NCBI GenBank assembly: GCA_051362555.1
Contig: CM120646.1
Span: 14,570,001 to 14,634,000, forward strand
Reading direction: 5' to 3'
DNA from: Lingula anatina
Taxonomy: Eukaryota > Animalia > Brachiopoda
DNA length: 64,000 nucleotides
Shown here: positions 29,818 to 62,474 of the stretch, one piece after another
Numbering within the stretch: position 1 is the stretch's first letter
Layout of the letters: each line of letters opens with the position of its first letter
Position numbers and translations under genes: made by a program
Notes under the pieces: model-generated
What the model saw: only the letters and a program-made list of their open reading frames with translations
Database searches by the model: none
Told to the model about the DNA's origin: nothing

Positions 29818-32507
29818 ATGGCTGATGTTGTCCCGATTTCCTTTACGCGACGATTGAGCGTGAGCGCGGACGATGTTTCATCTAAAGGGAAAGTTGGTCC
29901 CTCTCTCCCAAATGTTGACAGTGGAATAAATCTACATTCACAAAATGGCAGTTACACCTCGCTGGACACTATGTCACGTGTTTCAAGCTCCGTAAGTCTC
30001 GACCAACAGGTCCCAGATTGTGACGGGATGTTTCACTGCTCCCCTGCTGATGATGGGTACTCCACCGTTGATGACGACGCCGCCAGTATGACGTCAGGGA
30101 GTGACAGCGAAAGCGGCATTGACAGCACTCCACAAAGTGCGGTAAACACACTCCAAAAACACTCCAAAAATAAACAGCCAGCCTCAAAGAAAAATGTGGA
30201 TTTCTCTAATCCCAAAGATGGTAAGACTTGTACCAGCTACTGGTATATTAATGAAGATGATTAAAAAACCCAGTAAAGAAATAATTCCAATATAATATCA
30301 ATACTGTGGTTATATCAAATTCATACAGCTTTATCTTTAAGATTTTAGAGGAGGCATCTTACATGTATGTCAACAATGGTTTTTCTAAATACGACCACAG
30401 CAGAATAGGAAAATATGTATTTTCCGAAATATCCCATACTTTAAAAGTGAATCATTTGTCATTTACGTAAGAGGTATTAACAAACCTATCGCTGCAAACA
30501 TTCTACGCATCTTACAAGATATTTTTTTCTGCATTCAGAACTGATGAGGAAGTTGAAAGAGCAATACAAAGCCGACTCCCCTAATGCCACCAGGGCCGAG
30601 CTTCAAGTGGAGCAGAACCAGATGCATGCTGGCGTCCATCTATCCACAAAAACTCTATCCTTAAAAGGAGAAGGTCTATCAGAAGAAAGCAAAGATAGCA
30701 TCACCTCCGTATTTTCAGAAGAAAATGAGAAAAACGCAAGAACCTACATCACGACAGGCGGTAATGAACTACCTCCACAAGGAGACCTCCCTGAAGGAAA
30801 ATCACCACTTCAAGGGGCAATTGACACAGGGATTACTCATAAACCAATGAAGACAGGGAAACAGAGGTTCAGGTGGAACCTTATATTTAACCTTCTCTTC
30901 TGGATCATCGTCCCAATGCCTGTGTGGGTGCCGTTTGTGTCACAGACCGTCGCCTGGTACTTAATTCCTGCTGTCCAGGCTGTATTTGTCTTCATGTGGG
31001 TAGTAGTGGTTACCTTGGCCTGCAAGAACATGATTGTCCTTTACTGGTAAGTATTGGCTCCTGAATGAACTCTGTATCATAAAAGATATTAAAAAAACAA
31101 TGACGAAATATTATTATTATTATTATTATTTATTTTATTTTTTTTTTTTTTGTAATTCTTGTGGACTCAAATGCATGAACTAATATATGTTAATAATGTT
31201 ATTGCCATAATAATCTAGGATTCATTTTCTCATCTTTCAATTTTAGGAACAAAAATAAAGATTTCCGAGAAGACTACCCCGACTACACTGACATCCGCCA
31301 CCTGGTGGCCATCAGCTGTTACAAGGAACCAGTAGAACTGATTGCAAGAAGCGTTCAAACTTTAGCAGACCAGACCGAAGTCGGGCGCATCTCCATGGTG
31401 ATTTCTTTTGAAGAAAAGACACCGGAAGTGCAAACAAAATGCGATAAACTCCGTGAGATTTTTAAGGATGCTGGTTTCGAGCGTCTAATCTTCACCATAC
31501 ACCCCTTTGGTCTTCCAAATGAGATCCCTGGAAAGTGCTCTAATGCCAATCACGGCCTCCGCCAGGCGACGCAGGTAATGCAAGAGGAGCTTGGGGCATA
31601 CTTCGATGCTGAAAAGATTATCGTGACCACTTGTGATGCCGACTCATACTTCCACCCTAGCTACATTGCAGCTCTGACTTCCAAGTTCATGAAAGAAAAG
31701 ACCCCCCATGGAGTCGTATTCCAGGCACCCTTGTTCTACAACTGGGGATTGGATGGAAGTAGCTTTGTCACCCGTGTCACCGGTCTTCTCCGTACCACTC
31801 TCATGATGGGGGCTCTCATCCCATTCAACATCAATTCCATGAGCATTTTCTCCTTTTCCCTGCGGCTGTGTATTGATGGAAACTTTGTTCACCCCGCCTA
31901 CCAGATGGACGACATCATTTGCCTGATCCGATGGATGGGCGTTACTCGTCGCCGCATCCGTACTCCGATGATCCCGGTCCCCGTCATCAGCGGACCCACA
32001 TCCGGTGAGACCGTGGAGTTGGAAGTGGCTGAATGGGCGCGTCAAGCCAGAAGATGGACCATTGGTGCCGCTGAAGTCTTCCACTACTACGTTATTAAAG
32101 CCGGTCGCATGCCTTTCTGGCCTGCCTTCTCCTGGGGTCTTTGTTTCCTTTCATATTACGGCATCCTACTCTGCTCGGGAGGTTTGTACGGTATATCTGC
32201 CGGTTTGTCTATGGCTTTCCTGGTGAAAGACGCACCGTTCTACATTAACTACGCGATGTACGGTTTAGCAGGGCTCCAGCAACTCGCCTTTTTGGGGGTT
32301 TTCATGATGGACGTTTTCGGACCAAGATTGATGAAGGTCAAAGAGCATATTAGTTTCGTTCGTAACTTTCTTCATTTTCTCCTCACCCCGCTGGTGCTAC
32401 TAGGGTACTCCTTAGTGGAGTTCTACGCCCTGCACGAAGTTGCTATCAGAGGAAAAGAAGTCTGCAAACATGGCGCCTCGAAGAAGAGTGCGCTGGGAAA
32501 TGTTTAA
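29818..32507 (+). CDS. Membrane GT2 processive glycosyltransferase (cellulose-synthase-like, D,D,D,QxxRW), copy 1, about 723 aa
   Basis: Exons 29818-30220, 30539-31046 and 31247-32507 (GT-AG, 2172 nt, in frame). Ser/Asp-rich N-terminus, two TM helices, then CYKEP, FEEK, GKCSNAN, CDADS, QAPLFYN, MDD and QARRW motifs, followed by several C-terminal TM segments. Confidence 0.88.
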
Positions 32508-34009
32508 GTGATATTTTTGTGCAGACCTCAAAAGGTTCTCGTAAAAAATAAAAAAAACAGCTAGGTATTCTTACTTCGGGGGAACCACGCTTGCAAGGTT
32601 CACGCTTAGGGGATTTGCACACCAGATGTTGGTACTCACTTGCTGTTCTCAACTGTCACAGTTCCGGTACGTCAAAACTGTTTCGTTAATACAACGTACT
32701 GAATTCTATCTAACAAAGGCCAGCTCGTTGATAACTGCATGTTTAGCAAATATTCTCCTTACAGTTGAGAAATGTAAGCATAATAACCAAAGACATATCT
32801 TTGAATACCAAATAAGAATAAGAATTCATGTGACCCTGCTAGTGGGCAATCATCTTATCAGTTTAAGCTTTTAGAGTGATATTTTATCAATAATGATGCT
32901 GTCTCGTATCTATTTGAAAAATCCTCGTATTGCATATAACAGGACTTCAATAATGTTTCTTTGATGCCAAGAGTGGTTTCAGTGGAATGGACCCTGGTTA
33001 TCGTCAATTTGTGAGGTCAGAGTGAAAGCTTTATACTGAATAGACGTAAAATCGTGGCGCTATATATAGGTAATGGTAGATGATGTATTTATTCAGCTTA
33101 ATGTTGTTGAAGCAGTATTTTAGTGTCGCATGTTTTATTTAAAACTTTGGACTTCTTGTCTCTTGTGTTTTGTAAGACATTGTTCTGAACAGTTCAACTA
33201 AGACTTACTGTCTCTTTTGATGTATATTTTAATGTATTCAAATACAAATGTACATGTTTATTTTTTCATAAAAGTACTTTAAGCTTTTAAAATAGACATC
33301 TCTTTAACTGTAAATTGGAATGTCATTGTTAATTATCTCCAGTTCATTGTCTCGTATTTAATTATTTATTAGAAACTCATTCCGTGCAATATATTCAAGA
33401 AGTATGTTGTAGTAGTTTTCATATAAAATGCATTCCATCTCATTATGTGAGGGATATTACGGTGTACTAAAATGAATTAAGGTTTACTCCAAGTGAAAAA
33501 TATCTCTATAAAAAGAATTGTTTTCTGTTATCGTATTGTTAAAGCTTTATGTTATAATATCGTTTTTACATTTAGGCTTCTGGTAAGCGACTGGTTGTTT
33601 GGTGCCTGGCTCGCTTGTCATAGTTGTTTTAACGATAGATTTGTTGTATCATAATTGTATATATGCATATGTTAATTTATTAATAAAAAATATACAAATT
33701 TAAACAAACTGAATCTATTTCAAACTTTATCTATTTTTACGTAATAACGACGAAGAATTAACACATTAATAAGAGCTCAGACAAATTATTATTTAGTTGA
33801 GCTCACACAAAAGAACCATTTTCGGACAAACTTTTCCCTTTCTTGAACACGCTAATGTTCGCAACAGAAACGTTCTTATTATTTTCGTTGTCGTTGTTGT
33901 CTTCTGACAGTTCAGTAGACTTCAGCGGTTTAATGATGATCCATTTTTAGTTTACAATTACGTTATTTGACCAGAAATGGTACAAAAACATTGAATCCAA
34001 GTGCAAAGA
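32508..34009 (+). repeat. 3' UTR/downstream segment duplicated at 62475-64000
   Basis: Colinear sequence, nearly identical from about 33540 (vs 63533) to the window end. AATAAA at about 33682 and 63677. Confidence 0.9.
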
Positions 34010-36759
34010 TGAGTCGAGACATAATTCATGAGATGGAAAATTGTTCTTTTTTCCTTGGGGTGAATAAGATATAGGATTTATACAGTATAAATTTGTGTTA
34101 CATTTAAATTTGCTTCGCGATAATATTCAACGACGCAAACAACATTAACACAATCACTGATGAAAAAATGATGCACTCATTTTCCAAGATGACATCGACG
34201 TCCCTCTTGCCCTTTAAGAACACACAATGTTTGTTTAAATTATTTCAATGCAGAATGGAATCAACAAAGAAACTTTCAGAAAACTGTTCGATTTCCATTG
34301 TTCTGACACTCTTCCACAAAACTGATGTTTGTTCATGTTCGAAGGGAGACTGTGTGTAAGACGTCGCTTATTTTATATCGTTAATTGCATTCATTAGCGC
34401 AAAGATTACATCGTTTGTTATTTTGATAAACGAACGTACACAAATCAAGGTGTGTCAACCCCTTTGTATTTATTGGTTATTTAGCACTTAAATGTCCAAT
34501 TTTTTCTCTCAGGGTAGCTGCGATAATCTTACTACATGTTTGGTATGCTATGTGGCATTTTATATATGCAGAAAAACAATTGTTTTTGAATATCCTATAT
34601 CTAGCAATTTTTTAACATTCACAAAAATACATTTAACAGATTATCTCAATTTTAAATTATTTATCCTTAATCTGTTTACAATTTTAGAGTTTTCATGATG
34701 CACTCAGTTAACAAGATGACGCCCCCATTCTCTTTAAAACACGTTTGTTTTAATTATGTCAATGTAGAATGAACTTCACAAAGAAGCTTGGAGCAAGCTG
34801 TGTGCTCGATTTCCATTGTTTGGACACTCCCGTACGAAACTGGTGTTGGTACGAAGGGAAATTGTTTGTAAGACGACGCACAAAGTGGTTTGTGGCTAAC
34901 TTATCAGCCTGTAAGCGTGTCCGTTCACACTTCGGTTGTTGTGGTCACTGGAGACGTCAAAAAGCATGTTAATTTCCTTGTGCTAATCAGATTTTTATCT
35001 GCTCCGGGTACACGTGTCCGAAAGTGAGAGTTTAACCCGAATGGCTTGTATTGAAACAAGTGCCCTCTCCTCATATGGTGTAATATATTTCAAAGTTGAT
35101 AATCTTTTAGTATGCTATTTATACTTAATGGCCGACTGCAGATATTCAAATGTAAATTCTCTTCACATGCTTCAACATTCAAACATATGGCAACAGACTT
35201 CCATAAAGAGAGACAATAATTCATAAATACATCATCTAATTTGGAAGAACTCTGCGATTTGTAAATATGTGAACACGTTTCTTTATACCTGTCAATGGCT
35301 GACTGTCAGAGATGAAGATCTCGATATCAAGTCAATAATTATTATGGCGTTTTTTTTTTGTTTTTTTTTTGTTTTACACGAGGTTAATAATGCAATATGC
35401 ATGATTATTGGATTGAAGGAAAGATCACATATTAGTATATCAGTACCCTAAATAAAAAGGAAATGATAATCTCTTTTGTTTCGTCCACATTGCAATTGAC
35501 TTTAAATATTCTCTATCAACATCAGTTTTTACGTTTAAAATCCTCTATCAACATCAGTTTTTACATTTAAAAATTGCCAAGGATATATTAAACAAAGTGC
35601 CTCAATTTGAAATTATATATTCTACATCTCTTCACACTTTAGACCCTATAGACGACTGTTATGAAGTCAACCGTACAAGTTTGATTGAAAGGAAGCAAAG
35701 ATGCGTCTTTACCTATCTTTCTTAAAATATAGATAATGGTATTTAGAATGACAAACAAAATGTGAAGTAAAATGCAAATTTTTTAAAAGTTGCCATAAAA
35801 TATTTCACATCATGATTGAATATAGCGTCTGCAATTATACATACACATAAACTCAGAAGGGTAATTTTTTTAAAAATTCATACAGTCGTGTAAGGTTCCG
35901 TCGATTGTATGAGTAAGTTGTATGAGTATGCATTATCAGCAGCCCGTGACAGGTAAGGACATGTTCGTTCAAGTGATAACCTCACCTCCCATGGTGTCAT
36001 TACCTGAGGGCAGATGAATGTATACGCCCGTTACAAAACCCTTTTATTATTGAACTCGTTTTGTCTATCTCTTACAATTCACGTCTCATTTTACCTCGTT
36101 TTAGACACGATGTCAATGAGTAGCGCGCATAAGTAAGGGCGAGAGCTGTGGGCGTGTGTATGTGTGTGTGTGTTTTTATATATGTATTTAAGATAATTAA
36201 GGCGAATAGTTTTCAAGATTACCCATATCATATGAACAAAATTACGTTTTAAACTGGTCCTGATCCGTCAATTTGTTGAGGCACGCGTCTTTCAGGTCAC
36301 TAATAGACTCAGAGACTCACGAGGACTGTTATCATCATGTTTACTCGTACATGTAGTTACCACCTACGAGACACCTTCTTCCAGCATTACTGACCCTTGG
36401 ATGTCGCTGCCGCGAGTACTCGAGAGATGACGACCGTAATAAGCCTCTATAAGCACGTCAATTTTCTCACATACACCGTGGAATTTTTTAAAAGTCAGTT
36501 TTTAATTGTTGACGGGAGGAGTCTGTCTTTATTATGTCTATATCTTAGCCAGCGGTCGATTTGTGAAAAATTGCGGAAAGGGGAGGGGGGGTTACAAAAA
36601 TGACATTTTTCGATAGATAAATCAATAAAATAAATAGATGGAAAATAAATACCTAAATTGTGCTACTGTCTGCCATTTCTTTCATAATTTAATGCATAGG
36701 TTTGTTAATTTTTATTACCACAAGGCATTTGGATGAAACTTCAGTTTTCCATATCCTTA

Positions 36760-37450
36760 TAAAAGATCAGAGGGCCACTAGGAGGATATTTAGAAAGAGC
36801 GTTTTGGGAATATACATTTAGTTGCTAACTCTTTGGTTGGCAATCGTAGACATGGGAAAGCAACGCAAGACAATTGATATGAATTGCAGAAGAGTTACCA
36901 ATTGCGAGTCTGACATTGGAAAATATATCTGAAGGGTGAAATATAGGCCTAAAATCAGAAAGTCATCCTTGATAAAGTACATAAAAATAGTAATTAATCT
37001 GTGAAGGGTTGAAAAAAGAAGACACTCGAAATAAGAAATGGCGACGGAATTTGTCATTTGTCCAATTCGCAGACTATATGACTTTGTCAGCCAAGGTCGG
37101 TAACCATCCGGTGTACGGAGACCAATGTTGGCCCAAACGGATCGGTTTTTCTTCCACGTTTGCATGCGCTAATCAAAATGAAACTCCGTCGAACACGATT
37201 AACCGGAATTGTGTTCCTGTTTTGTCAATAAAATCACAAGTCGTTTGTTTCTGTGTGATAATTTCAAGAAAATGGAGGTATCAGCGCAAATCGCGTTAAT
37301 TAAGAGACGCAAGCTGTGTCTCAATTGCTTAGACGCAGGACATTTCCTCGATAGCTGTACTAAGCTGTCCATGTGCAGAGTGACCGGTTGTGTAGATAAG
37401 CACTCTAGATTATTTCACATCACCGATCTGGGCCCCGTAACTCGAAAGAA
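36760..37450 (+). mobile_element. BEL/Pao LTR retrotransposon gag remnant
   Basis: Frameshifted peptides FVQFADYMTLSAKVGNHPVYG and LFLCDNFKKM..IKRRKLCLNCLDAGHFLDSCTKLSMCRVTGCVDKHSRLFH. The latter is the Pao/BEL triple zinc-knuckle pattern. Confidence 0.75.
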
Positions 37451-37860
37451 TCGCGCATTGCGACCGAGCGCAAGCGTCTGGATTCCATAACTCGCCCATA
37501 GTCGTCCCATAAAATACATTGTTGCCTCTATGTGATATCGCCATCCGCAATGCGCGGGCCCAGGTCGTGAGATCCTCGACCGCGAAAATGCTGTTTGGCC
37601 TGATAAGGCCGCGAGTTTTTCAGCTGCGTCAAATAGCGGTGTTCTGTTTGCGCATTGTTACAGTTAGTAAATAACAAGACAAAGGACTTGCGATTTTGGA
37701 TAGCGGGTCAGTGTCTTCTTCCATATCACTGCACTTGACTTCTTTTCTTTGCTTTGATACAAAAAATAAATGTCAACTTCAAGTTTATTAGGTCGACTGT
37801 TGTTTGACTTGACGCGTCTTTTTGCAACGACACTTCGAAGACGTACAGCCTGTTTTTCTG

Positions 37861-38436
37861 ATGTCAGGGAGTGACAGCGAAAGCGGCTTTGACAGCACTC
37901 CACCAAATGCGGTAAACACACTCCAAAAACACTCCAAAAATAAACAGCCAGTCCCAAAGAAAAATATGGATTTCTCTAATCCCAAAGAAGGTAAGGTATA
38001 GCAGTCACTGGTATCTGAATGACAATTATTAAAATAAGTTTTGCTAACAGTATTGAACACTCCAGTAGCGAAGGTGATACAACTCTTCCGTAAGATGTTA
38101 TTTTGTTGGTCGTGTGACCATTCCCATATATGGAATTCATTGGTAATTCGGGACGCATGGAGGCGGTCGTGTAGAGCACGTGACATTTTGATTGCAACTG
38201 ATGAATACAAATGTTTTGTCGTTTTGATAATTTTTTACACAAATCCACATACTTTTATTCAACTGGAAAATAAGATTTTGGATGGTAATTCGGCGAGAAT
38301 TTATAAGTTATGTGGATATAATTCCCTTGTTTACCCTTATGATGTCGTGGCGGTGGCCGCCGTTTTGGAATTTTAAGCTGTGCATATCGTTATTTGAATG
38401 AAAATGAAATTACGGTGAAAAGTAGTGTTTTATCCA

Positions 38437-38524
<88 letters not shown>

Positions 38525-41202
38525 AGAGTAATTCTTGTCGGTGTTAATTATCCAAATCATTTCTTATTATCGGCCAGTGGTGGTTCACCAGAAAAATATA
38601 TACAGTACATGAAGAATACCTTTAAGGTAGTGAGTATCACCTTTTTAGCATGGAATTTGTACTGCAGTACAATTGTTTGATGAATTTTACATGGCTTGAC
38701 TTTATGCATTGGAGCTGCGTTCGTTTTTAAAACAACGGTTAAACTGTAAGTGTCCAACATGGGTACTGCGCAAGAGCCGCCAAGTGCCCCAAAGTTATCA
38801 TTTTATATCGCACGTGAGATGCTATTTCCAAATAAAAAAATGGCTGCCTCTGTGCGATCATGTAGGGTCTACATTATGTCTTCTTGATGTATGCAAAATT
38901 GAACATTTTAGGCTCACTGATACAGCAATCCACCACTGAGCCAGAATAACAAAAAGTGTCCTTTTTTGTCCTAAGAGGGCCCTGCGACATTATTCATATA
39001 CAATTCTTTTTCCTGTGACATTATTCATATATCATTTATATACCATTCTTTTCCTAAAAACCACAGCACTTGGACATAATGTCCAAGCACAGCAGAAAAG
39101 AGAAAAATGTAATGGTTTTGTTTCAGAATAGTCCATACTTTAAGTTTGGGTGTATGGTTTGGCGTATACTGTGTAAGGGATATTTACAAACCTACCGATG
39201 CAAACATTGTTGGTATGTAACAGGATATTTCTTCTCCTTTCAGAGCTGCAAAATGAAATGAAAGAGCAATACAAAGCAGGCTCATCCGATTCCACTAAGG
39301 TCGAGCTTCAAGTGGAACAAAACCAGATGCAAGCCGGCGTCCACCTAATCCCAAAGGCTCTTACCCTAAAAGGAGAAGGTTCACCAATAGAGGACAAAGA
39401 TCGCATTACCGTACTATCAGCAGAAAATTACAAACCCCAAAGAGTTTATACAACAACTAATAAACTACCTCTACAGGGAGACCTCCGAGAAAGAAAATCA
39501 TTTCATGGGGCCATTGACACAGCGGTTACTCATAAACCATTAAAGGCAGGGAAGCAGAGGTTAAGGTGGAACCTTATATTTAACCTTCTCTTCTGGATCA
39601 TCGTCCCAATGCCTGTGTGGGTGCCGTTTGTGTCACAGACCGTCGCCTGGTACTTAATTCCCGCTGTCCAGGCTGTATTTGTCTTCATGTGGGTGGTCGT
39701 GGTTACCTTGGCCTGCAAGAACATGATTGTCCTTTACATGTAAGTATTGGCTTCTGAATGACCTCTGTATCACAAAAGATATTGAAGCCGCGAAGAAACA
39801 ATGACGAAAGATGTTTTAGGTTTTGAAATTCATGTAGATTTGTTGTGTTGAAGTACAGCATGTATGATTTTTTAAAAATAATACTGCCACAAAATCCATG
39901 GATTCATATTCTCTACTTCTTTATTTCAGGAACAAAAATAAAGATTTCCGAGAAGACTATCCCGACTACACTGACATCCGCCACCTGGTGGCTATCAGCT
40001 GTTACAAGGAGCCAGTAGAACTGATTGCAAGAAGCGTTCAGACTTTAGCAGACCAGACCGAAGTCGGGCGCATCTCCATGGTGATTTCTTTTGAAGAGAA
40101 GACACCGGAAGTGCAAACAAAATGCGATAAACTTCGTGAGATTTTTAAAGATGCTGGTTTCGAGAAGCTGGTCTTCACAATTCACCCCTTTGGTCTTCCA
40201 AATGAAATCCCAGGAAAGTGCTCAAATGTTAATCACGGCCTCCGCCAGGCGACAAAGATAATGCAAGAGGAGCTTGCTGAAGGAGATGCTGAAAAGATTA
40301 TCGTGACCAATACTGACGCCGACACATACTTCCACCCTAGCTACATCGCAGCTCTGACTTCCACATTCATGAAGGAGAAGTCCCCTCATGGAGTCATATT
40401 CCAGGCACCCTTGTTCTACAACTGGGGTTTGGATGGAAGTAGCTTTGTCACCCGTGTCACCGGTCTTCTCCGTACCACTCTAATGATGGGGGCTCTGATC
40501 CCATTCAACATCAATTCCACGAGCATTTTCTCCTTTTCCCTGCGGCTGTGTATTGATGGAAACTTTTCCCACCCCGCCTACCAGATGGAGGATATCATCT
40601 GTCTGATCCGGTGGATGGGTGTAACTCGTCGCCGCCTCCGTATTCCGATGATCCCGGTCCCCGTCATCAGCGGACCCACATCCGGTGAGACCGTGGAGCT
40701 AGAAGTGGCTGAGTGGGCGCGTCAAGCCAGAAGATGGACCATAGGTGTCGCTGAAGTCTTCCACTACTACATGATTAAAGCTGGTCGCATGCCTGCCTGG
40801 CCTGCCTTCTCTTGGGGTCTTTGTTTCCTTTCTTACTACGGCATCCTGCTCTGCTCGGGAGGGTTGTACAGTATCTCTGCCGGTTTGTCCATGGCGTTCC
40901 TGGTGAAAGACGCACCGTTCTACATTAACTACGTGATGTACGGTTTGGCCGGGCTCCAGCAACTCGCTTTTCTTGGGGTCTTCATGATGGACGTATTCGG
41001 ACCAAGACTGATGAAGGTTAAAGAGCATATTAGTTTCGTTCGTAACTTTCTTCATTTTCTCCTCACCCCGCTGGTGCTACTAGGGTACTGCTTGGTGGAG
41101 TTCTACGCCCTGCACGAAGTTGCTATCAGAGGAAAAGAAGTCTGCAAACATGGCGCCTTGAAGAAGAGTGCGCTGGGAGTTGTTTCATCAACAGATTTGT
41201 GA
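37861..41202 (+). CDS. GT2 processive glycosyltransferase, copy 2, N-terminally truncated (about 632 aa if started at 37861)
   Basis: Exons 37861-37990, 39244-39739 and 39930-41202 (1899 nt, in frame, GT-AG). Catalytic exon open, with GKCSNVN, TDADT, MED and QARRW. Only the 3' third of coding exon 1 remains, so the start is uncertain. Confidence 0.78.
38441..38523. repeat. (TA)n(TG)n microsatellite
   Basis: Directly visible. Confidence 0.95.
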
Positions 41203-41476
41203 CCTGGATTGTACATCTAGTAGCTCACAAACAGAAAGTGTCCCTTATTTGGCGATCTTCATGGGTCTCCCTAAATATTGGGGAGCAAGCCTATTTTATA
41301 AGAAACCGTACTGGTTTCTGCTTAGTACATATCTGTGTAATTCTTATAAACCTGATTGTTTGAACTCTGTAAATATGTGCGCATGATTCTTGGAACAGAA
41401 ATAGCGCATGGCACCTACTACTGTATTTATCTTCTGTAGTCTTCGACAAAGATAAATTGGTATATATATATATACA

Positions 41477-42854
41477 CACACTGGACAAAAGAAGTGTCAC
41501 CCCTACTGAGCCAATACTATGGGGGAGATAAATGACTGTGGAATGATATGCTCCTGGTATCATTTTATTAACATCAAATTTCACAAAAAATCACAAAATG
41601 AGAACAAAATATACATTCTACCAAAATATGTAGTTTCAAGTCCAAAATTAGTACCTAGTGGCATAGCCACGTGACCTAATAATAGGTGCCAGTCTACGAA
41701 GCAAGGATTCATTTAATTGTCTGATGCGTTCAGGGCTTATGCTGGCCCAAGCATGAAACACTGAATATAACAGAGTTTCTCTGCTGGTTAGACGGGCATT
41801 TGTAAAAAGTTTTGACATATCATTCCACACATTTTCTATTATGTTTGTATCCGGACTCTGGGCAGGCCACATCACCCTGCGAATGTCCTGTTGGTCAAAC
41901 CAATCATCAACTGCTCTGGGCCTGTGACAAGGAGCATTGTCATCCTGGTGAACAGATGGATAATTCCTTTCACCAAACATGTTAGTAATAGATGGTAGCA
42001 AGCCTGACTCCAAAACATCGATATATTTCTAGTGATTCACGTTTCCATTTACCACTATCAATTCGCCCAAGCCATGGATGCTGATGCAGCCCCACACCAT
42101 GATGAATATGCTGCTCCAGGTTCGAAAATTCAGTGCATGTGGTTCAAATGCTTTACCAGCAGTTTGCCAGCATAGTACCCGTCTGTCATCAGAGGTCAGA
42201 CCAAAGAGACTCTCATCAGAAAAAATATATAGGACCAATTGTCATGGACTGTCCAGTCCCAGATCCTGTTGACCCTAGTTTACTCTTCGTTGCCTGTTTT
42301 GTAACGATATAAGAGGGTTTAGTCTTGCTACCCTGCTGTACACTCTCTGAGCATGTAACCGACGCCTAGCAATTTTCACAGACACATTCTTATGTGTGAA
42401 ATTGTTCTACTGTGTTGTCAATTACTGACAAGCAGTGTCGAACTTTGACAACCTGGACATCAAAATCAGTCGTCGGTCTTCACGGCCAGTATTTTTTCTT
42501 GGACGACCCATCAGAGGCAATTTGTCTCTTGATCCAGTGTTTCTATACCGAGACCAGACCCTCTGCACGGTTCTGACTGAACAATTCAATTGTATCGATA
42601 TTCTGACATTGCTTATATTCCGCCTCTTCAGGTTAATAACTTGCACCTAACCGTTAGATAATTACATGTATCTTGCCATATTGGAGGAAGACAGGAATAA
42701 CATTTGCTGTACATGTACAAGACCAACAATACAATTCCATGGTATAGCGGTTTTATAATCATTAGTCACATTATAAGTAGACCAGGCAATATAAGTACCC
42801 AAGATCTGCCTACTTTCATTACTCTGAGTTAGGGTGTGACACTTCTTTTGTCCG

Positions 42855-50186: not shown

Positions 50187-53177
50187 TTTACACTACAGTT
50201 GAAAGTAACATCATTGCGGAAAAAACGCCCGAGGAGTTTAAGCTGAGGAATAGCACGTGCTTACCTGATTCCAATTTTCTTTGCATTGTGCTTCTCTTTG
50301 ATAATCTATCAAAGCGGAAAGGCCTTGAGGTTCAAATCCCTTGCTCGCTATGTCACCTGCTGTTTAAAGATCAATCAATAATTTGATACAACAAAAAACA
50401 ATGAAGAATGTATAAAACACAAATTGAAAATTAAAACATAAAATGTAATAGTAATGAGTAGGGAAGAAATTATCTAATTTGTATTATCTTTTTCAAGACC
50501 TGACCAAGCATCAATGTTCCAAGAACAAGTAATCGTTTTTTCGATAAATAGCAACCGTGAACATTAATATAGGGTTCTTCAAAGGAGGTCGAAAAACTAG
50601 AATTACCTAGAAATCCCTTTACCAATTTCTTGAATTTAAAATACTTATATATGTACTATTGCAGTAAAAATTTAAAAACAGTATTAGAGCAAAAGACACC
50701 CCCCCCCCCTTTGTGCTATCAACCACTCCCACGCGTTTCTGTTTTAAACATTGGTGTGAATTGCTGCTGGGCTCGCGCCATAACTCTGTAAGTAAGTCAG
50801 AGTTAATTATGGCAAGGGTGTGAAATACAATCTTTTCCCGAAGTTTGCCTTACTTGTTTTACGTTTATTTTAGATATTCACTTCTTATTACGATGTAACA
50901 TCAAACAGAGGCATCATTCTGCATGTTTACTGATAAAACCAGAAGTAAGATTTTCAAGACGATTCTCAGGCACCAGGCTGGTGATGATTGATGCAGATAA
51001 ATAGGTGTATAAACGGCGGTGTTGAACGGTCTATAACTGGATATGTTAAGGCGAGGAAGATTTGTTTGAAATAGAAAACACAAATTTCAACAACAAAAAA
51101 CGCTGCAGTTACGTTTAACATCTTGAAATAGTTTATTCATCCAGATGCAGGGATTTTCTATGTGACAGCATCATTTCACAACAGGACAATGTTAATTTTT
51201 TTCATTATCTAAGCGGGTAAGAAAATACATCCCGTCGTATCCATCTCCCTCAATACCCAATCAAAAGAAGACCTTGTTAACCCTTTTCTTAAATCATCAT
51301 ATAGATAATTTTCAATGCATCTTTATGAATAAGATGCTAACATGCCAAATATTTTGACATTCATAAAACTACTTCTAATGGTTATTGAACCATTAATATA
51401 TACAACAATTTTTATCTAGTAATTTTATGTGCAAATATATATTTAGTTGTGTATTTATTTATTTATTTTAAAGTATTATAAAAGCAAGTTATTTCAAGAT
51501 ATTCAATGTATTTTAATTATTGTTTCTGCACTATTTGAACTAAATATACTTTTTGCATAACGTGCAAACAATCAATTGCATTGTTATACAAATTATAAGG
51601 ATGAATAATGTATACACCAGTCCAGGAATGAATTTATATTGGATTGACAAATAATGGGATACACAAAATTTAGTGGAGCAGTGACTTACAACTTATACCT
51701 CAGGGCTAAAATTAAGATTTTGCAACTAAGAAGACTCACCGTTTTCATTACAGCGCTGGATGCTTGGGAAAGTATCTGGATACAAATGGCAAAACCAACA
51801 GAATACATTCCGACCATAAGAGTGGCCATGAGGCCCTTCAAAATACGTCACTGACACGGGTCCAGAATTACAAAGACGTACAGATTCGGCGTCATATGTG
51901 AATTGGCACCCTCCATCGTTGGTTCCGCTCAAGGGTTCGTGTCCCCCATCAGGACCTATGCAAGGGCGTCCTGGGAGATGGTCCGGTGCGCCAAAAAACA
52001 ACATGCAATCTGGTGTCAAATGGATCTTCTCCAAAACTCCGGTAACGGTCGTAGCATCTTTGAAAACTTTGATTTGTGACTTGTGACACACAATCCTGGG
52101 CTTCCATGCTTTGTGAGCTGTCACGTTGTGACAGGTGGCGCAAAAAGAGTTTTTAAATGTGACGTTTGACTCTGCTGACGAGACGGGCAACACAACAGCT
52201 ATGTCATTGGACCAGCCTTTTAACTCGCATTTATTTCGAACTTCTTCATCGTGCCAATGGCTGGGACAGGAAGACACTACCCAGTAGTATCTGCTGTAAA
52301 CGTCTTCAATTTCTTGAGACCCCTGTAACCAACACTCTGTGTTATTTCGGTGGAGGTCAATCCCGGTAATTTTGGTATCGTTGCAAAAACGGTCATATGG
52401 CCAACAGCAATCACCAAACACGTCACACAAGTCGTCGCAGTAGCAGGTTACGAGGACGACGTCATTAGTTGACCCATCACCACGACTAGCACAGAACGGG
52501 ATGTTGACTGTTACGTTAAGCAGCATTAGTTCCCTCTGAGAATACACCATGGGAGAAGTTGGAGCAAATTGTTCTAATTTCGGTGAAGGGTTAGATAAAT
52601 GTCCTTGAGATACGTGACCGGTGCTTGCTTGACGTGTACTTGTTAAGCTTACGTTTGAGTTGAGGTTCGGGACCTCTGGAATGAAAGCAGGGTAGTTAAC
52701 CTGTACATTTGGAACTTCCTTCTGTGTTGTATGAACCTCATTGTTTGCGACCTTGTTTGTGGACGCGGCAGTAGCGACAAGCATACCATTTACAGCTGCT
52801 GTGTTCGCCCTAGTGACCATAGAAGATCCACTTTGGTTGACAGTAGGTGAATTACTTCTGTCGAACACAGGTGAGCTGCTTTTGTCGACAACGGGTGAGC
52901 CACTTTCGTTGACCATAGGTAAGTCACTTCCGGTGACCATAGGGGAGTCACTCTCAGTGATCCTGGGAACTCTTGTGCTTTTATGCCTAGGCCGTGTCGT
53001 TGTCAGCCGCTCTTCTCGACTACTGACAGACCTGGGGACAGTTGGAGTTGTAGACGTGATCATTGCAGAGTTGGACGGCGCCCTAGGAATCTTTGGCATT
53101 GACGCTTCCACTGGAATTTCCTTTTGTGAGTCAATCAAGTAATACACTACCATAACCAAAAGCATTAAGACCTTCAT
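49083..53177 (-). CDS. Secreted, probably GPI-anchored mucin-like protein with a somatomedin-B domain and Cys-rich domains, about 700 aa, 3 exons
   Basis: Minus-strand exons 51740-53177, 50265-50356 and 49083-49655 (GT-AG, 2103 nt, in frame). Signal peptide MKVLMLLVMVVYYLIDS, S/T/P-rich stalk, SMB CYCDDLCDVFGDCCWPYDRFC, WVVSSCP..LPVSS..TFKNSFCATCH domain, and hydrophobic C-terminus QMLLQALIAIIITYI. Confidence 0.8.
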
Positions 53178-54101
53178 TGCTGATGTGTCTCTTTCCTCTC
53201 AGTGCTCTTCTGTGTTATTTTGCGTAGTTCATTATATATATAACCGTTAGAGCCGACTTGCTGATTCGCTCTTACTTCAGGTCGGTAGGAACGTCGTTTT
53301 GGTTAGCTTTCGTGTTGACGTGACAGTGAATTAAGGCTCTAGCTAATCAGTATCATAGTACTACAAAAACAACATCACACCGTAAACAATTGCAAGGTAT
53401 CTTTTGCGTGATCCCCCTTTTCATATAAAGTCACGGTAAATTGTTATATTCATACTAACAGGAGATGCGGTAGGTGACAGACAATTTAATACATTTGGGA
53501 AACTGTGAAAACAAAAGAATATCACGTTTAAAATCACGTTCTGAAAATGCCCCTTTCAAATTAACGAGTTCATAATGTCGTGTTACGAGTAGGTTTTTCT
53601 TTCAGACAAAATGAATTTCTGGAACCTTCGCCACATTGTTCTCCCATTTCTAAAGAACAATTGTTTCAGATTTTAAGCAAAAACACACTCCATTGTTCAA
53701 ACCATGAACGTGTCATCAATCTGACGTGATTTCTTTTGTCGCAAATTAATAACGCACAGCTGAGCCCTAGTTTGTTTGTTTTTTTCACATTTTTCCTCAA
53801 AGTTTTTATCTGTTTACGTGAAATCACATTGCATAAAACGATCGCTCCATGCTTCCAACCCATGTAGAGTGTATGTAAGAGTTCACGCGGCCGGCTTCTT
53901 CATTTTCAAATGTCATTAGTATCGACTTTTCGTAACTGCTTGACGCGTTTAAACTTTACAAGCTCAGAAGTCGAGCACTAAAACCTTTCATAAAGATCTT
54001 TTTCTCAAAAATTCGTCAGTAAGTCAACATTTAGCATTTTAGGCCACTTTGAGCATTTGGTGAATAATCATGCAAATAATCACTTGTAATGATCACTTTT
54101 C

Positions 54102-54106
54102 GTTTT

Positions 54107-54152: not shown

Positions 54153-54155
<3 letters not shown>

Positions 54156-55965: not shown

Positions 55966-56109
55966 GCTATAAATAAGCTCTGGAGATTGTTATCGAATCG
56001 TTATAATTGGTATCATTTGACCTCGCCAAACTCCTCGTTGTCAACAAAGAGCGATCGCTGTATCTGAGACATTATAGAGGCATAGCTTCTAACATCACTA
56101 CGAACCAAG
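55966..56109 (+). promoter_or_regulatory. Putative TATA box and non-coding first exon of GT2 copy 3
   Basis: TATAAATA at about 55968. Exon end cactacgaaccaag|gtaaga is homologous to 28060, and the downstream intron is homologous to 28061-28240. Confidence 0.55.
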
Positions 56110-56958
56110 GTAAGAATTTTTTAACAATAAATATGATTAAATTTAAAGAAAACGCAGCACATTTATTTTTTCTTTCAAGTATGTTGTTGCTTTCATTCGT
56201 TTAAGTTTATTTCCATGTTATTTCATAGTCACATTGATTATTAGCTGCATGGTGCCTCTTTTTCAGTTACTTTTTATTTATCTATTTTTATTTCTTGACA
56301 CGAGCGTAATCTCATTTAACAGGCTTAAGGTATCCACGTATTTACCTTTTAATACAGTTAATCGCTATAACATTATTTAGGGTGGGGTCATTACAAACCA
56401 TCCACACGCAACGAAAATGTCAGTAAAAATTGAGGTTTTAAATCCTCATGAAAATACAACATGAAGCCAAACTTTACTTGCAAGTGTTTCAAGGCTGTAA
56501 AGACATGCAGGTTTACAATTCTGTCAATATTTTGCGTAGTCTTCGGACGAGCCGCAGCAAAAGACTTTTACTTTCCCTTTATTCCTAGAGTTAAACTTAA
56601 TTAGAATACGTATGAGAGGAGACGGGGGCGCCACTTATGAGAAGGCCACACTACTTATGAGTAGGCTGGAGGAAAATTTGCTTATTTGGGTGTTCTGAAA
56701 AGTTGTTCAGTAATTTCTTTATGCTCATTTGTTTAAAGTCGTCAGGACTTTGTACATGGTTGTTTCATGACATTTCTCAGATATCTGAGGGTAAACTTGC
56801 ATTTTACTGCACATTTGGACTAAGATATCGGGACTTTCAACGCACTGGAAGCCAATACTGAAGAGACAAGTTACACTTGTTATATATGTTGAATTTAGAT
56901 TTCTGCTCACCCAAGGACAAATTGTTCTAAGAGCAGATTCAGAACAAGTTGACCCGCG

Positions 56959-57153
56959 GACTAAATATTGCCGTCCCTACTTAAAAGCAAACCACCTAAT
57001 CTCTTGTTGGTATCCCCGTCCCCACACGCGCCGTCCCAGCATGAATAAAACCTCGGAGCCGAGATGTGATCCGCTTAATGGCGCGTGTGGAGACCGAGGG
57101 GCCATCATGGGATTAGGCGTCTTGCTTTTAAGTGGGATCGGTTATATTTAGTC
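56959..57153. mobile_element. Foldback MITE-like element (about 195 bp)
   Basis: gactaaatattgccgtccctacttaaaagcaa...ttgcttttaagtgggatcggttatatttagtc are imperfect inverted arms. The inner part also pairs (ccacacgcgcc / ggcgcgtgtgg). Confidence 0.7.
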
Positions 57154-57559
57154 TGCAGATTATCTGCTCTGAATGCGCTCTAATAGAACCATGAAAAGGT
57201 ATGTATATGCATATGCGACAGATATGCTGATAGACATTGATGCCAAAAGTAAGTGAGGGGTATCATCAAAAACCTGGGCAACGATGAAAGACCTAAACAT
57301 AATTATACCTGCGGGGGTCATGGTGTATGGTGACCCGAAGCAAGCCAATTGTGACTATCATCTATTATGACCTAATGAGGTTTTCCTCTGAGCTAAAGCA
57401 GATGGGTCCCAACTTTGATAATTTGAGGAGACCGATAACAATAGATTGGTTAAATATGGAGGTGGTAACAAACGTGTTCACTAGACATTGGAAAACTATT
57501 ATCCCAGCCTATGAGTCCGCAGAGGAAAAAGAAAAGCCCATTCCTGGATGATATAAAAC

Positions 57560-59330
57560 TAATTGGAAAACCATACTCAATGACCGGCCTTTCATTTACA
57601 ATAGCTACAATGAACAGTAGATCAGTGAGGAAAAAAGCAGTGATGATACGTGATTCTGTTTTGGGAAAAAACCTCGATTTGATAACTATAGTTGAAACCT
57701 GGCTTACTCCCAGTGTGCACCTGTCGGTATTGGCTGATATGGTCCCCACTGGTTATAGATGCATTCAAATACCGCGACTAAAAAGACCCGGCCGTGAAGT
57801 AGCATTTCTTGCCAAGAAAGTTTCCGGATGAGGCAAGTGGAACCTGTCGTTTCTCCAACCTCCTTAGCGCTTGTTGAACCACGGGCAGAATTATCGGTGG
57901 GGCTTGAATGTTGAGAAGAGATCAAAGGTTCATCAGCTGAGAGCAATTCCTTCTCAAAGCCAACTGCGTGCGGACATCTCCCGATTATCGGTGACCTTTT
58001 GTGTCATTTAAACAGGTAGGTACAGACCAGGTGACACTTCGGGTGGATGAGATAACAAACTCTAAGAGATTAGGTGAACGCATATTTATTGTATTATTTC
58101 GGAAGCTACATGATCGAGAATATGATACTAGTATGTTTGTTCTTGAAGGAATTCAAAATGCTCAATACGGTGAAGTAAATTGTGTCCGGAAAATGTTTTT
58201 TTTTAACTCACAATATCGGCCCTCATTGCATTATGTAGTCACACGAGCATTTGTGATACCCAGAAACGCACCTGTAGGTTTTTAAATATTTTTTAATCAT
58301 CATTAACATCAACAATGTTGTGTACTTCATATAAAGATGGATGTTACCGGCTAAGGGCTGCTTGAATTTGGGAATGGTAATTAATAATTAATAATTATTA
58401 ACTCTCAATATCGGCTCTAATTGCAAAATGGCGTCACACAAGCATTAATGAGACCCAGAAACGCACCTGCGTATCTTTAAATATATTTTAATGTTGACAT
58501 CACCACTACTAAGTACAGAATCCTTCCATCGAAGAAAAACAACATCAAAAATTCTACCTTCTTTGAAGACCACCTAAAATAACTTCATGTAGAGCCCTAT
58601 CAGAACGGCCGACTGTGCTAGAAGATTTCAATATAGATTGGAAAGAACTGACAACAGTGAAACAAATAAATTCATGTCAAGTCTAGATAGTTTCAATTTA
58701 GAAAAACATTTTATTAGGTAAAACCATGTGCATAGCCACACACTAGATCTGATTATAACCAAGAAAAGGGATGAACTTGTAAATTTCTGTTCTGTCGGTC
58801 ACCTCCTCTGTGATCGCCCTCTCTGTGACCATGACGTGTGGAAAGCCACTGCCAGTGAAAGAATCGGTTTTCATTGAAGAATGAAGATTTGAATCCTCTC
58901 GAGTTGTAACAGATCTTGGAAGAGAAATTATTTTAATAATTTAAAAATGTCAGTATCAGCGACCTAGACCCAAACTGGTCTATTGAGTTACATGGCAAGC
59001 TGCTGTCTAATAGTTTCGACATCATAGGTCCAATGAAATCAACTTTATTGTCAAGAGGGACTTGCAGCCAAGGATGAATTGTGATATCCTGAATGCGTAA
59101 AGGAGAAGACGGAAGGCAGAAAGTTTATGGCGTAAAACCAAACTCACTCACCAAATCTACAGAAATGAATGCAACAAAGTGAATGGCCTAATCAAATATA
59201 TAAACTCGGTTGTATACTCGCTGTATCATCAAGAAACCATGAAATTTCCTTAAAACGAAATTGAAAAACCGTTTTTCCAATCTAAGGGCCTGGATGGTAA
59301 AGAACAAACCTATGATAAATAACAGCACTA
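57560..59330 (+). mobile_element. Degraded CR1/L2-clade LINE ORF2 fragments in intron 1 of GT2 copy 3
   Basis: APE endonuclease N-terminus ATMNSRSVRKK..DLITIVETWL..PTGY; later DFNIDW and HTLDLIIT remnants (about 58620-58760), KRRRRKAE (about 59100) and the RT C-terminal RAWMVKNKPMIN (about 59285). Interrupted by indels. Confidence 0.75.
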
Positions 59331-59415
59331 TATATTTTTATTCACGGTTATTTTCATGCATTTTAGTGGCCAAACTATGCTTTATTCATTATCTCTCTGT
59401 TTTTACAGATAAACA

Positions 59416-62400
59416 ATGGCTGACGTTGTTCCGATTTCCTTCACACGACGATTGAGCGTGAGCGTGGACGATTTTTCATTTCAAGGGAAAGTTGGTCCCA
59501 CTCTCCCTAGTGTTGACAGTGGAATAAATATACAAGTAGATATACAAAACAGCAGCTTCACCTCGATGGACACTGTGTCACGTGTCTCAAAATCCGTCAA
59601 TCTCGACAAACAGGTCCCGGATTGTGACGGGAGGTTTCACTGCTCCCCTGCTGATGATGGGCACTCCATCGTGGATGACGACACCGCCAGTGTGACGTCA
59701 GGAAGTGACAGCGAAAGTGGCATTGACAGCACCCCAGAAAGTGCGGTTCACACACTCCAAAAACCTTTCAAAAATAAACAGCCAGCCTCAAAGAAAAATG
59801 TGGATTTCTCTAATCCCAAAGATGGTAAGGCTACCAGTAGTACCTGCTACGCGTATGTTAATGACGATGATTAAAAACCTAGCAAAGAAATGATTCCAAT
59901 ATATAAAAGCCATAATGCTCATCTTTTAGATTTCAGATGGGGCATTATCACCCTTCAAGTTTACATGACAGAGAAAGACTTCAACTATGCATCTCAGCGA
60001 CAATACATTAACCTTCTATTCTCACTTTTGTCACACAGAAGATGAACCTGCAATCAACTTTGTGCACTTCTCTACAAATTTGTTCTTACTTAAAAACATT
60101 CACTAGTTACTGGTTACATGTAGGTCAAGTTTATCAATGGTTTTCTAAATACGACAACAACAGAATAGAGAGAAATGCTTAGGCCTAGTTTCCGAAATAT
60201 TCCGTATTGTAAGTAAGAGTATTTTCTTTGTCCTACACGAAATACGTATTTACAAACCTATCACTTTCAAACGTACGCATCTAACAAGATACTTAAACTG
60301 CATTCAGAACTGTCACGGAAACTGAAGGAGCAATACAAACCCGAATACCTTGATTCCACCATGGCTGAGTTTCAAGTGGAACAGAACATAACGCACGCTG
60401 GCGTCCACCTTTCATTTAGTGGCGAAGGTCTCGCAGAAGAGAGCAAAGACAGTATCACCTCAACATTTTCAGAAGAAGATGAGAAAAACACAAGAAAGTA
60501 TATCACGGCAGGCAGTTATGAACTACCTCCAGAGGGAGCCGTCCCAGGAAGAAAATCACCAATTCATGGTGCAAATGACACAGGAATTTCCCATAAACCA
60601 ATGAAGACAGGAAAACAGAGGTTCAGGTGGAACCCTATGTTTAACCTTCTCTTCTGGATCATCGTCCCAATGCCTGTGTGGGTGCCGTTTGTGTCACAGA
60701 CCGTCGCCTGGTACTTAATTCCGGTTGTCCAGGCTCTTTTTGTCTTCATGTGGGTAGTCGTGGTTACCTTGGCCTGCAAGAATATGATTGTCCTTTACAT
60801 GTAAGTATTGACTTCTGAATGACCTCTTATTTTAAAAGATATTTAAGCCACGAAGAAACAATGACGAAAGATGTTTTAATTCTTGAAATTCGTGTTGATC
60901 GAAGTATAGTATATATATATATATTGTTGGAGTGCATGCGTGTGTCTCTTTCACGAAGAGGGCTCAAACTGGTGATACTGGGAGGATGTACCAAGTCGAA
61001 CGCATTATGTTGATGTAACCGGTGGTTTCACGGATGCTTTTATTAACATAAAAACACCGATCTTCAGACATCCGCCTTCACCTTGAAATACGTATTGTGG
61101 TGAGTTCTTTTGAAGAGAAGACACCGGAAGTGCAAACAAGATGTATATATTTATAGGCATACTATTATTGCCACAAAATTCTAAGATTAATATGCTATAA
61201 TTTCGTATTTCAGGAAAAAAAATAAAGATTTCCGAAAAGACTATCCGGATTACACTGACATCAGCCACCTGGTGGCCATCAGCTGTTACAAGGAACCAGT
61301 AGAACTGATTGCAAGAAGCGTTCAGACTTTAGCAGACCAGACCGAAGTCGGGCGCATCTCCATGGTGATTTCCTTTGAAGAGAAGACACCGGAAGTGCAA
61401 ACAAAATGCGATAAACTTCGTGAGATTATTAAGGATGCTGGTTTCGAGCGTCTAATTTTCACCATTCACCCGTTTGGTCTTCCAAATGAGATCCCAGGAA
61501 AGTGCTCCAATGCCAATCACGGCCTCCGCCAGGCGACGCAGGTAATGCAAGAGGAGCTTGGGGCGTACTTCGATGCTGAAAAGATTATCGTGACCACTTG
61601 TGACGCCGACTCATACTTCCACCCTAGCTACATCGCAGCTCTGACTTCCAAGTTCATGAAAGAAAAGACCCCCCATGGAGTCGTATTCCAGGCACCCTTG
61701 TTCTACAACTGGGGATTGGATGGAAGTAGCTTTGTCACCCGTGTCACCGGCCTTCTCCGTACCACTCTGATGATGGGGGCTCTCATTCCATTCAACATCA
61801 ATTCCATGAGCATTTTCTCCTTTTCTCTGCGGCTGTGTATTGATGGAAACTTTGTTCACCCCGCCTACCAGATGGACGACATCATTTGCCTGATCCGATG
61901 GATGGGCGTTACTCGTCGCCGCATCCGTACTCCGATGATCCCGGTCCCCGTCATCAGCGGACCGACATCCGGTGAGACCGTGGAGCTAGAAGTGGCTGAG
62001 TGGGCGCGTCAAGCCAGAAGATGGACCATTGGTGCCGCTGAAGTCTTCCACTACTACGTTATTAAAGCTGGTCGCATGCCTTTCTGGCCTGCCTTCTCCT
62101 GGGGTCTTTGTTTCCTTTCATACTACGGCATCCTACTCTGTTCGGGAGGTTTGTACGGTATCTCTGCCGGTTTGTCTATGGCTTTCCTGGTAAAAGACTC
62201 ACCGTTCTACATTTACTACGTGATGTACGGTTTGGCCGGGCTCCAGCAACTCGCGTTCCTTGGGGTTTTCATGATGGATGTATTCGGACCAAGATTGATG
62301 AAGGTCAAAGAGCATATAAGTTTCGTTCGTAACTTTCTTCATTTTCTCCTCACTCCGCTGGTGCTACTAGGGTATTCCTTGGTGGAGTTCTACGCCCTGC

Positions 62401-62474
62401 ACGAAGTTGCTATCAGAGGAAAGGAAGTCTGTAAACATGGCGCCTCAAAGAAGAGTGCACTGGGAAGTGTTTAA
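59416..62474 (+). CDS. GT2 processive glycosyltransferase, copy 3, about 720 aa
   Basis: Exons 59416-59824, 60308-60800 and 61214-62474 (2163 nt, in frame, GT-AG). The catalytic exon is almost identical in protein to copy 1, with all motifs intact. Confidence 0.88.

Follow-up and report, generated by a model that had tools for sequence, protein, structure and literature searches.

Three tandem genes of Lingula anatina represent an uncharacterised subfamily of family 2 glycosyltransferases with a predicted cellulose- or hyaluronan-synthase-type fold

We found that a stretch of DNA from the brachiopod Lingula anatina (the window: 64,000 nucleotides, positions 14,570,001 to 14,634,000 of contig CM120646.1) carries three open genes for glycosyltransferases of family 2 (GT2), arranged in tandem on the plus strand. 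The genes, g1, g2 and g3, encode proteins of 723, 632 and 720 amino acids. They represent a real, uncharacterised GT2 subfamily that cannot be assigned to the cellulose synthases (CesA, BcsA), hyaluronan synthases (HAS), chitin synthases or PgaC by the features that define these enzymes. According to structural modelling, they are membrane GT2s with an active site and fold of the cellulose/hyaluronan-synthase type. As a mechanism, we consider stand-alone synthesis of a beta-linked glycan most likely, with the transfer of a single sugar to a lipid as a close rival. The processive polysaccharide synthases known from animals are very few.

The gene models, obtained from six-frame translation, a search for GT..AG splice sites and the open frames, confirm an earlier reading of the window (hereafter, the original prediction) that had announced three spliced, open GT2 genes. 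The window is Lingula DNA, as shown by the 99.7% identity of g1 to XP_013382888; for g3, identity to XP_013382839 is 99.1% over 566 amino acids. The original prediction also took the genes to be real animal genes, and contamination is indeed ruled out by the g1 match to RefSeq, spliceosomal introns, a SEM1-like flank and polyA RNA reads.

All motifs quoted in the original prediction are present in the Lingula genes: CYKEP, GKCSN, DAD, QAP, MDD or MED, and QARRW. Conservation was calculated from 104 ingroup rows of alignment A1 (113 rows, of which the last nine were excluded as distant). E359 is present in 100% of these rows, the two Asp residues of the DxD motif in 96% and 97%, the general-base Asp in 100%, and the Q, R and W of QxxRW in 95%, 97% and 96%. 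In g1, the DxD motif (D434-A-D436, 31635..31643) is predicted to bind metal and nucleotide, by analogy with GT-A enzymes, and the last Asp of the MDD motif (31905..31913; MED in g2), the equivalent of TED, is the putative general base. QARRW (32043..32057) is located on predicted interface helix 2. Six residues from the C-terminus, CKHGASKK (32463..32486) is an instance of the conserved pattern CxHxxSKK (H 95%, K 97%), which we predict to be equivalent to the gating loop of known synthases. Two near-invariant arginines (96% and 98%) are found on interface helix 1.

Two N-terminal and several C-terminal transmembrane helices had been expected. Hydropathy and an AlphaFold model give two of each, plus three interface helices, and the GT-A domain is predicted to lie under these three interface helices and four membrane helices. 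The model used is that of the paralogue P0001, which is 94% identical; 463 of its residues have a predicted local distance difference test score (pLDDT) of at least 90, and the N-terminus has a low pLDDT. In the model, the chain ends just after the predicted gating loop, and none of the four membrane helices follows this loop. The model's structural alignment to Xenopus HAS1 (XlHAS1) stops at residue 486, the end of interface helix 3 (IFH3), which suggests that the helix at 576-611 is IFH3, that CxHxxSKK is likely the gating loop and that the last two transmembrane helices (TMH5-6) are absent.

The comparison with known structures that the original prediction proposed supported a fold of the HAS/BcsA type, but the last two channel helices of these enzymes are missing. 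The top 13 Foldseek rows are viral and Xenopus HAS (E-values 4e-11 to 7e-9), then BcsA. In VIA, where Z-scores to PcManGT, BcsA and HAS range from 18 to 23, the Pyrobaculum mannosyltransferase PcManGT (PDB 6YV7) comes first (Z 22.9, range 22.4-22.9; root-mean-square deviation (rmsd) 4.2; 328 of 345 residues aligned). E. coli BcsA (Z 21.4, rmsd 4.2, 370 residues aligned) and Chlorella virus HAS (CvHAS; Z 20.9, rmsd 3.9, 378 aligned) are close to it, and the best fold matches in BFVD are 10-14% identical. Sequence profiles gave scores below their thresholds: PF00535 reached 22.3 bits versus a gathering threshold of 23.3, and PF13632, the Pfam family matched most often, 21 versus 27. None of 30 proteins reached an NCBIfam cut-off, the best score being that of NodC (21.7 bits versus 550), and no chitin-synthase Pfam family was matched at E up to 0.1 or, in a second scan, 0.01.

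That the diagnostic motifs of CesA, HAS and chitin synthase are missing had been stated in the original prediction, and motif comparison agrees. EDR and QRRRW are chitin synthase motifs; the Lingula genes have MDD or MED and QARRW instead. The TED finger motif marks cellulose synthases. With BcsA and CesA, the Lingula family shares the D,D,D,QxxRW set and the predicted fold, but it lacks TED, FxVTxK, the post-loop helices and the PilZ region, and identity is 11-14%. Whereas E. coli BcsA has FNVTAK at 617 and then two further helices, the Lingula family has MDD/MED and CxHxxSKK, and then the C-terminus. Class I HAS (Chlorella virus, XlHAS1, streptococcal HasA), which provides the top Foldseek rows, has in common with the predicted Lingula protein the GT-A domain, three interface helices, QxxRW, two N-terminal membrane helices and a loop after IFH3. 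However, the two are 10-13% identical, the Lingula family has MDD/MED and CxHxxSKK without GDDR or WGTSGR/K (WGTSGRK/R), and the TMH5-6 of vertebrate HAS are absent from it.

PgaC and IcaA have the same order of elements and, likewise, a chain end shortly after the last loop. From QxxRW to this loop, there are 139 amino acids in E. coli PgaC versus 140 in the Lingula family; PgaC then stops ten residues after its last motif, WVSPDRG, which from its sequence may be its gating loop. PgaC requires PgaD, annotated in E. coli as a synthase subunit. By contrast, the Lingula family has no NCBIfam match, and no PgaD-like neighbour occurs in the two cyanobacterial loci described below. PcManGT, as noted, is matched over nearly its full length, but is 12-14% identical, and the Lingula family has one extra N-terminal membrane helix as well as a conserved C-terminal loop and helix. 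Among animal GT2s, the glycosphingolipid mannosyltransferase egghead/BRE-3 has a similar topology and a QxxRW-type motif; we take PF13632 and this topology to include egghead. PcManGT has three membrane helices (PMC10569066) and is referred to as having a 'minimal cellulose-synthase-like fold' that acts in N-glycan synthesis (title cited in PMC12595478).

We hold with about even confidence that the Lingula-type enzyme is a stand-alone processive or semi-processive synthase of a beta-linked glycan. A cytosolic nucleoside diphosphate sugar would be held by the DxD motif and K400, while the acceptor would stack on the QxxRW Trp and be activated by the Asp of MDD/MED. At the C-terminus, the CxHxxSKK loop would close over the nucleotide, and the product would leave through or along a short four-helix path, as in streptococcal HAS or PgaC. 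The short chain-end layout is also found in the polymerases PgaC and streptococcal HAS; the processive HAS of S. equisimilis is described as ending with a loop (T404-L417) at the entrance of the substrate tunnel (bioRxiv 10.1101/2024.10.24.620076). Since this layout is common to polymerases and the minimal PcManGT fold, polymer synthesis seems a likely activity. In both cyanobacterial loci, the gene is outside any exopolysaccharide operon (as judged from translations of open reading frames (ORFs) and three Pfam scans), which fits a stand-alone enzyme. In addition, copies have multiplied in Lingula (seven RefSeq models), Patella (two adjacent locus tags) and bdelloid rotifers.

Several observations weigh against polymer synthesis. 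The modelled Lingula-type protein has no TMH5-6, the helices that come after the gating loop in Xenopus HAS1 and contribute to the opening of its channel (PMC11750622). The best VIA match is PcManGT, not HAS or BcsA. Identity to every solved structure is just 9-15%; a sequence search of the PDB gave no match to the catalytic exon and only chance rows for profiles A1 and A2. No hydrolase or export gene neighbours the gene in the loci inspected, and RNA coverage is thin, at 34-220 reads over 13.5 kb, some of them on a repeat, in runs of 9.5-12.4 million records.

The alternative, with a probability that is considerable but short of even, is an inverting glycosyltransferase that is not processive and transfers one sugar only, onto a membrane lipid or a lipid-linked glycan; its helices would hold the lipid acceptor and form no channel. 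Such an enzyme would work like egghead/BRE-3, cyanobacterial MgdA or PcManGT, which we take to be a single-step lipid-phosphate mannosyltransferase. Given the similarities in fold among PcManGT, BcsA and HAS and the short topology, the anatomy allows either a polymerase or a lipid glycosyltransferase. The first place of PcManGT in VIA and its coverage, the lack of membrane helices after the gating loop and the frequency of PF13632 among the sub-threshold matches are consistent with lipid transfer. The arginines of interface helix 1 could bind a lipid phosphate, although equally a uronic acid, and that one gene functions in hosts so unlike each other fits an acceptor lipid that they share. On the other hand, the Z-scores of PcManGT, BcsA and HAS are within 2 of one another and Foldseek puts HAS first, the full D,D,D,QxxRW set and the conserved gating-loop equivalent have been kept, and the short topology also occurs in known polymerases.

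A broader proposal is that the subfamily constitutes a further class of animal polysaccharide synthases, beside the chitin, hyaluronan and tunicate cellulose synthases. This class would be stand-alone, would have entered animals at least three times (the Lingula/limpet/bdelloid/copepod group, nematodes and a tardigrade) and would make an undescribed extracellular beta-glycan. We regard this proposal as tentative and less likely than not. Of the matrices suggested for the product in the original prediction, the radula does not apply to brachiopods. Such a subfamily, which is conserved, appears from its motifs to be catalytically intact and is missed by standard Pfam thresholds, could be the sign of an animal glycan that has gone unrecognised in brachiopods and limpets, rotifers, nematodes and sea lice. 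Should the enzyme prove to be a lipid glycosyltransferase, it would still point to an unassigned glycolipid pathway common to invertebrates, fungi and ciliates.

C. elegans, through its gene C09F12.2 (NP_509848.2, UniProt Q93199), and Tetrahymena offer direct genetic handles on function. C09F12.2 and its nematode, ascomycete and Tetrahymena relatives belong to the same subfamily, with the same motifs and topology; bre-3 is presumably a different gene from C09F12.2. We found no paper describing the GT2 subfamily in the open-access literature, and no function for C09F12.2 in the literature searched. In the entry given to it by Crisp et al. 2015, C09F12.2 is a class A horizontal gene transfer with fungal best hits, annotated just as 'integral to membrane' (PMC4358723). 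The main text of the Lingula genome paper does not contain 'glycosyltransferase' or 'cellulose', and the first two places for each term in its supplement hold nothing on the family (PMC4595640).

The catalytic exon matches 304 proteins, of which 120 were listed. Named among the 120 are Lingula (94% identity), the limpets Patella and Lottia (66-70%), bdelloid rotifers (59-70%), the copepod Lepeophtheirus (52-57%) and two cyanobacterial metagenome-assembled genomes (MAGs; 47-48%). The closest named relatives outside brachiopods in this list are thus limpets and bdelloids, at about 60-70%, and the two cyanobacterial proteins are closer to Lingula than are the nematode copies, a representative of which is about 43% identical to the Lingula exon. 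Through a search for longer proteins (seven long matches), the diatom Seminavis and another Patella copy, adjacent to the first, were added. Neither the 120 listed of the 304 matches nor the seven long ones include the name of a vertebrate, insect, bivalve, annelid, cnidarian or echinoderm. A search of representatives gave 1124 proteins with E-values of at most 0.001, including 119 for which E is 1e-30 or lower; among the 20 looked up, those named are a tardigrade, Tetrahymena, Trichostrongylus, Rhynchopus, a verrucomicrobial MAG, Nonionella and Pterosperma. With a nematode query, we also retrieved C09F12.2 (the sole relative listed for C. elegans), many rhabditid and tylenchid nematodes, Plectus and many ascomycetes. 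Members therefore occur in ciliates, a diplonemid, a diatom, a prasinophyte, a foraminiferan, fungi and animals. Their database labels are automatic ('Glycosyltransferase 2-like domain-containing protein' or 'cellulose synthase/poly-beta-1,6-N-acetylglucosamine synthase-like').

Bacterial holders are rare, and the family is patchy across eukaryotes. A full-length match was found in none of 400 sampled cyanobacterial genomes, which gave eight weak N-terminal matches. A scan of one genome per bacterial species, with patterns from one cyanobacterial copy that detect close relatives only, gave two loci. Searches of IMG/VR and of phages and plasmids found no viral, phage or plasmid carriers. The nearest ESM Atlas clusters (0.96-0.98) are PF13632 GT2s of the candidate phyla radiation (CPR; Minisyncoccota, Saccharimonadota) and Chloroflexota. 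A distant group at 27-33% identity (E about 1e-27), which we infer to be these CPR/Chloroflexota GT2s, has HPxxxxGExxGK, DAD and the same topology, but has QxxRH for QxxRW, SED for MDD and YxxTPK for CxHxxSKK.

Both cyanobacterial copies (L001:180-1334 and L002:846-2402) are solitary. One is near an ORF that, by eye, encodes an IS200/IS605-type transposase, and the other, in L002, is GC-poorer than its locus (0.39 versus 0.48), suggesting that the bacterium received the gene, perhaps recently. The two cyanobacterial loci and the eukaryotic loci inspected have no neighbours in common, and so offer no functional clue.

Trees were calculated first with FastTree (LG+CAT) and then with IQ-TREE (LG+G4, 50 rows, 486 columns). 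Lingula, limpets, bdelloids, the copepod and relatives form one group (support 99/97), nematodes, ascomycetes and one further row form another (100/100), and the tardigrade joins the diplonemid Rhynchopus (98/90); the backbone is unresolved. The C09F12.2 group is thus on a separate branch from Lingula, together with ascomycetes. Approximately unbiased (AU) tests rejected a single clade of all animal rows (p-AU 6e-35; 50 rows, LG+G4, group named after the first FastTree had been seen), which speaks against the vertically inherited pan-metazoan family that the original prediction had named as the alternative. They also rejected a clade of all opisthokont rows with the tardigrade (p-AU 0.0017). 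The first of these rejections points to old, repeated transfers. The Lingula group was not rejected as a clade with nematodes and fungi (p-AU 0.18) or with the cyanobacterial group (p-AU 0.23). Since both groupings stand, the tree does not pick a donor of the Lingula group.

Introns carry further information. From exon lengths, the second Lingula intron is in codon 304, phase 2. Eighteen of 57 metagenome loci, those with a break near codon 304, were examined: 12 have a GT..AG intron exactly at this position and phase, four have one at codon 290, phase 1, and two are unclear. The 12 loci form eight groups at 90% DNA identity, three of which are 81-87% identical to named bdelloid proteins. Of four copepod-like loci, those that span codon 304 have no break at it, and some have introns inside the catalytic domain. 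The shared intron implies one of two histories: the gene was already present in an animal genome when the copies of Lingula and bdelloids split, or it moved between animals with its intron. As a separate observation, animal-type contigs (L013-L017, L020) hold copies 71-78% identical to Lingula and with the same intron; these copies are closer to Lingula than is any named non-brachiopod.

In our reading, the family was probably transferred among eukaryotes more than once, long ago. It would be related to the GT2 group common in CPR bacteria and Chloroflexota, and would have moved among eukaryotes several times. A Lingula-type copy with its intron would already have been in an animal genome before the copies of Lingula and bdelloids diverged, and would later have been amplified in Lingula. 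The family would then be a clean case of a single gene that moves repeatedly among eukaryotes. Regarding the horizontal origin put forward in the original prediction, the non-vertical, transfer-like distribution is borne out, but a recent or Lingula-specific import from bacteria is largely refuted by the shared intron, the animal relatives, the base composition and the rarity of bacterial holders.

It is rather unlikely that the family is instead an ancient eukaryotic GT2 passed on vertically, with old paralogues and a great many losses, so that no transfer into animals is needed. The range of eukaryotic members, the unresolved backbone and the acceptance of Lingula with nematodes and fungi agree with this explanation, as does the split between the copepod side and spiralians inside the Lingula group, which follows the species tree; hidden paralogy could still yield such trees. 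Against it are both rejected clades, the grouping of nematodes with ascomycetes and of the tardigrade with the diplonemid, the animal lineages that go unnamed among the matches listed and the class A score of C09F12.2. A recent transfer from a bacterium to Lingula, with introns and amplification following later, is highly improbable: the similarity of the two cyanobacterial proteins, the acceptance of a Lingula-cyanobacterial clade, the large ESM Atlas clusters nearby (CPR, Chloroflexota and Saccharimonadota GT2s) and the intronless catalytic exon would fit it, but the codon-304 intron in 12 of 18 loci, the limpets and bdelloids as closest named relatives among the matches listed, the ordinary GC content of the exon, the 400 cyanobacterial genomes without a full-length match and the composition of the L002 gene do not.

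Some copies elsewhere have unusual surroundings. In Fusarium (P0359, P0402, P0405, P0391), the gene apparently adjoins a hexose/major facilitator superfamily (MFS) transporter gene (FOPG_13400, FOPG_13401), and one model is fused with PF00083; a functional cluster of the fungal gene and the hexose transporter is possible. The metagenome scan contained no locus recognised as fungal. Among P0088, P0096, P0051 and P0256, some bdelloid models carry an additional ThuA-like (PF06283) or sulfotransferase (PF13469) domain, and one protein is joined to SerH repeats; these fusions may be annotation artefacts.

The three Lingula genes are under purifying selection: between paralogues, dN/dS ranges from 0.08 to 0.18 for the core and from 0.38 to 0.53 for the N-terminal tail. 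They are also at least partly expressed, with transcription demonstrated for g1-like copies. Four of nine listed RNA runs were mapped to positions 28500-42000 (13.5 kb), with 6-25% of each run read. The exons of g1 are covered in all four, which answers the original prediction's call for transcripts, and three runs look strand-specific, consistent with RNA from the plus strand. In one run, six reads span the g2 intron 39739>39930, and eight run from an exon 2 of the g2 type into an exon 3 of the g1 type; the latter reads likely stem from another paralogue or allele. Part of the reads fall on a repeat at 41-42 kb.

The catalytic exon had been described as visibly GC-richer, which is true only relative to introns. 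Its GC content is 0.50 versus 0.45-0.48 in four other exons (Fisher p 0.10-0.61), and that of third codon positions is 0.58 versus 0.46-0.51, significant against two of the four. A GC signature of transfer is therefore ruled out.

All three genes have three exons. In g1 (29818-32507), exon 1 (29818..30220) holds the start codon and a predicted disordered Ser/Asp-rich N-terminal tail; it matches the N-terminus of XP_013382888, has RNA depth and corresponds to the low-pLDDT part of the paralogue. Exon 2 (30539..31046) encodes the remaining tail and membrane helices 1-2, with the motif RWNL..P.W.P, and ends in the phase-2 intron at codon 304. Exon 3 (31247..32507) encodes the GT-A domain, interface helices 1-3, two membrane helices, the gating-loop equivalent and the stop. 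The exons of g3 (59416-62474) are 59416..59824, 60308..60800 and the catalytic 61214..62474. In g2 (37861-41202), exon 1 is truncated (37861..37990): the first ~91 codons of g1 are missing from it, its reading frame begins at an internal Met, as in the RefSeq paralogue LOC106153447, and it has no RNA depth in the four runs. Only the 3′ part of the original exon is retained (37859-38034, 88.8% identical to g1 30089-30266). Exon 2 (39244..39739) is joined by the spliced reads to the catalytic exon 3 (39930..41202), which has TNTDAD, MED and a VVSSTDL tail, a kind common to LOC106153447 and LOC106153445.

There are seven Lingula RefSeq models in the 90% cluster, six on a 513-kb contig and one on a 355-kb contig, all named 'uncharacterized'. 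Two sub-types are visible: TTCDAD/MDD (g1, g3) and TN[ST]DAD/MED with a C-terminal VVSST tail (g2). The changes adjoin catalytic residues and, from the sequences, may reflect a different donor or acceptor. Two of the three Lingula MED copies have the internal Met start, and the MED form is also present in ascomycete copies.

Just 5′ of the truncated g2 exon, an ORF fragment at 37203-37487 (+) has a CCHC zinc knuckle-like motif; it is retroelement gag-like by eye, has no Pfam match and may mark the event that cost g2 its 5′ end. Just 3′ of g2, 41651-42646 (-) is a remnant of a Tc1/mariner-like transposase (DDE_3, E 1e-9), the RNA reads on which come from other copies. Between g2 and g3, a long exon of about 490 codons (51729-53198, -) encodes a Ser/Thr-rich mucin-like stretch, a Somatomedin B domain (PF01033, E 1e-4) and a Cys-rich region.

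As flanking genes, the original prediction had named CCDC13 and SEM1. SEM1/DSS1-like motifs were found at about 17.4-18.8 kb on the minus strand. An upstream coiled-coil gene is also present, without any CCDC13-specific Pfam match. Between these two genes are three local direct-repeat arrays (12584-13373, 13765-14928 and 15760-16608), with units of roughly 160-460 bp and 75-88% identity. Finally, an imperfect 270-bp palindrome at 56921-57192 (71% self-match on the opposite strand) adjoins a retroelement fragment at 57469-57828 that is endonuclease-like by eye.

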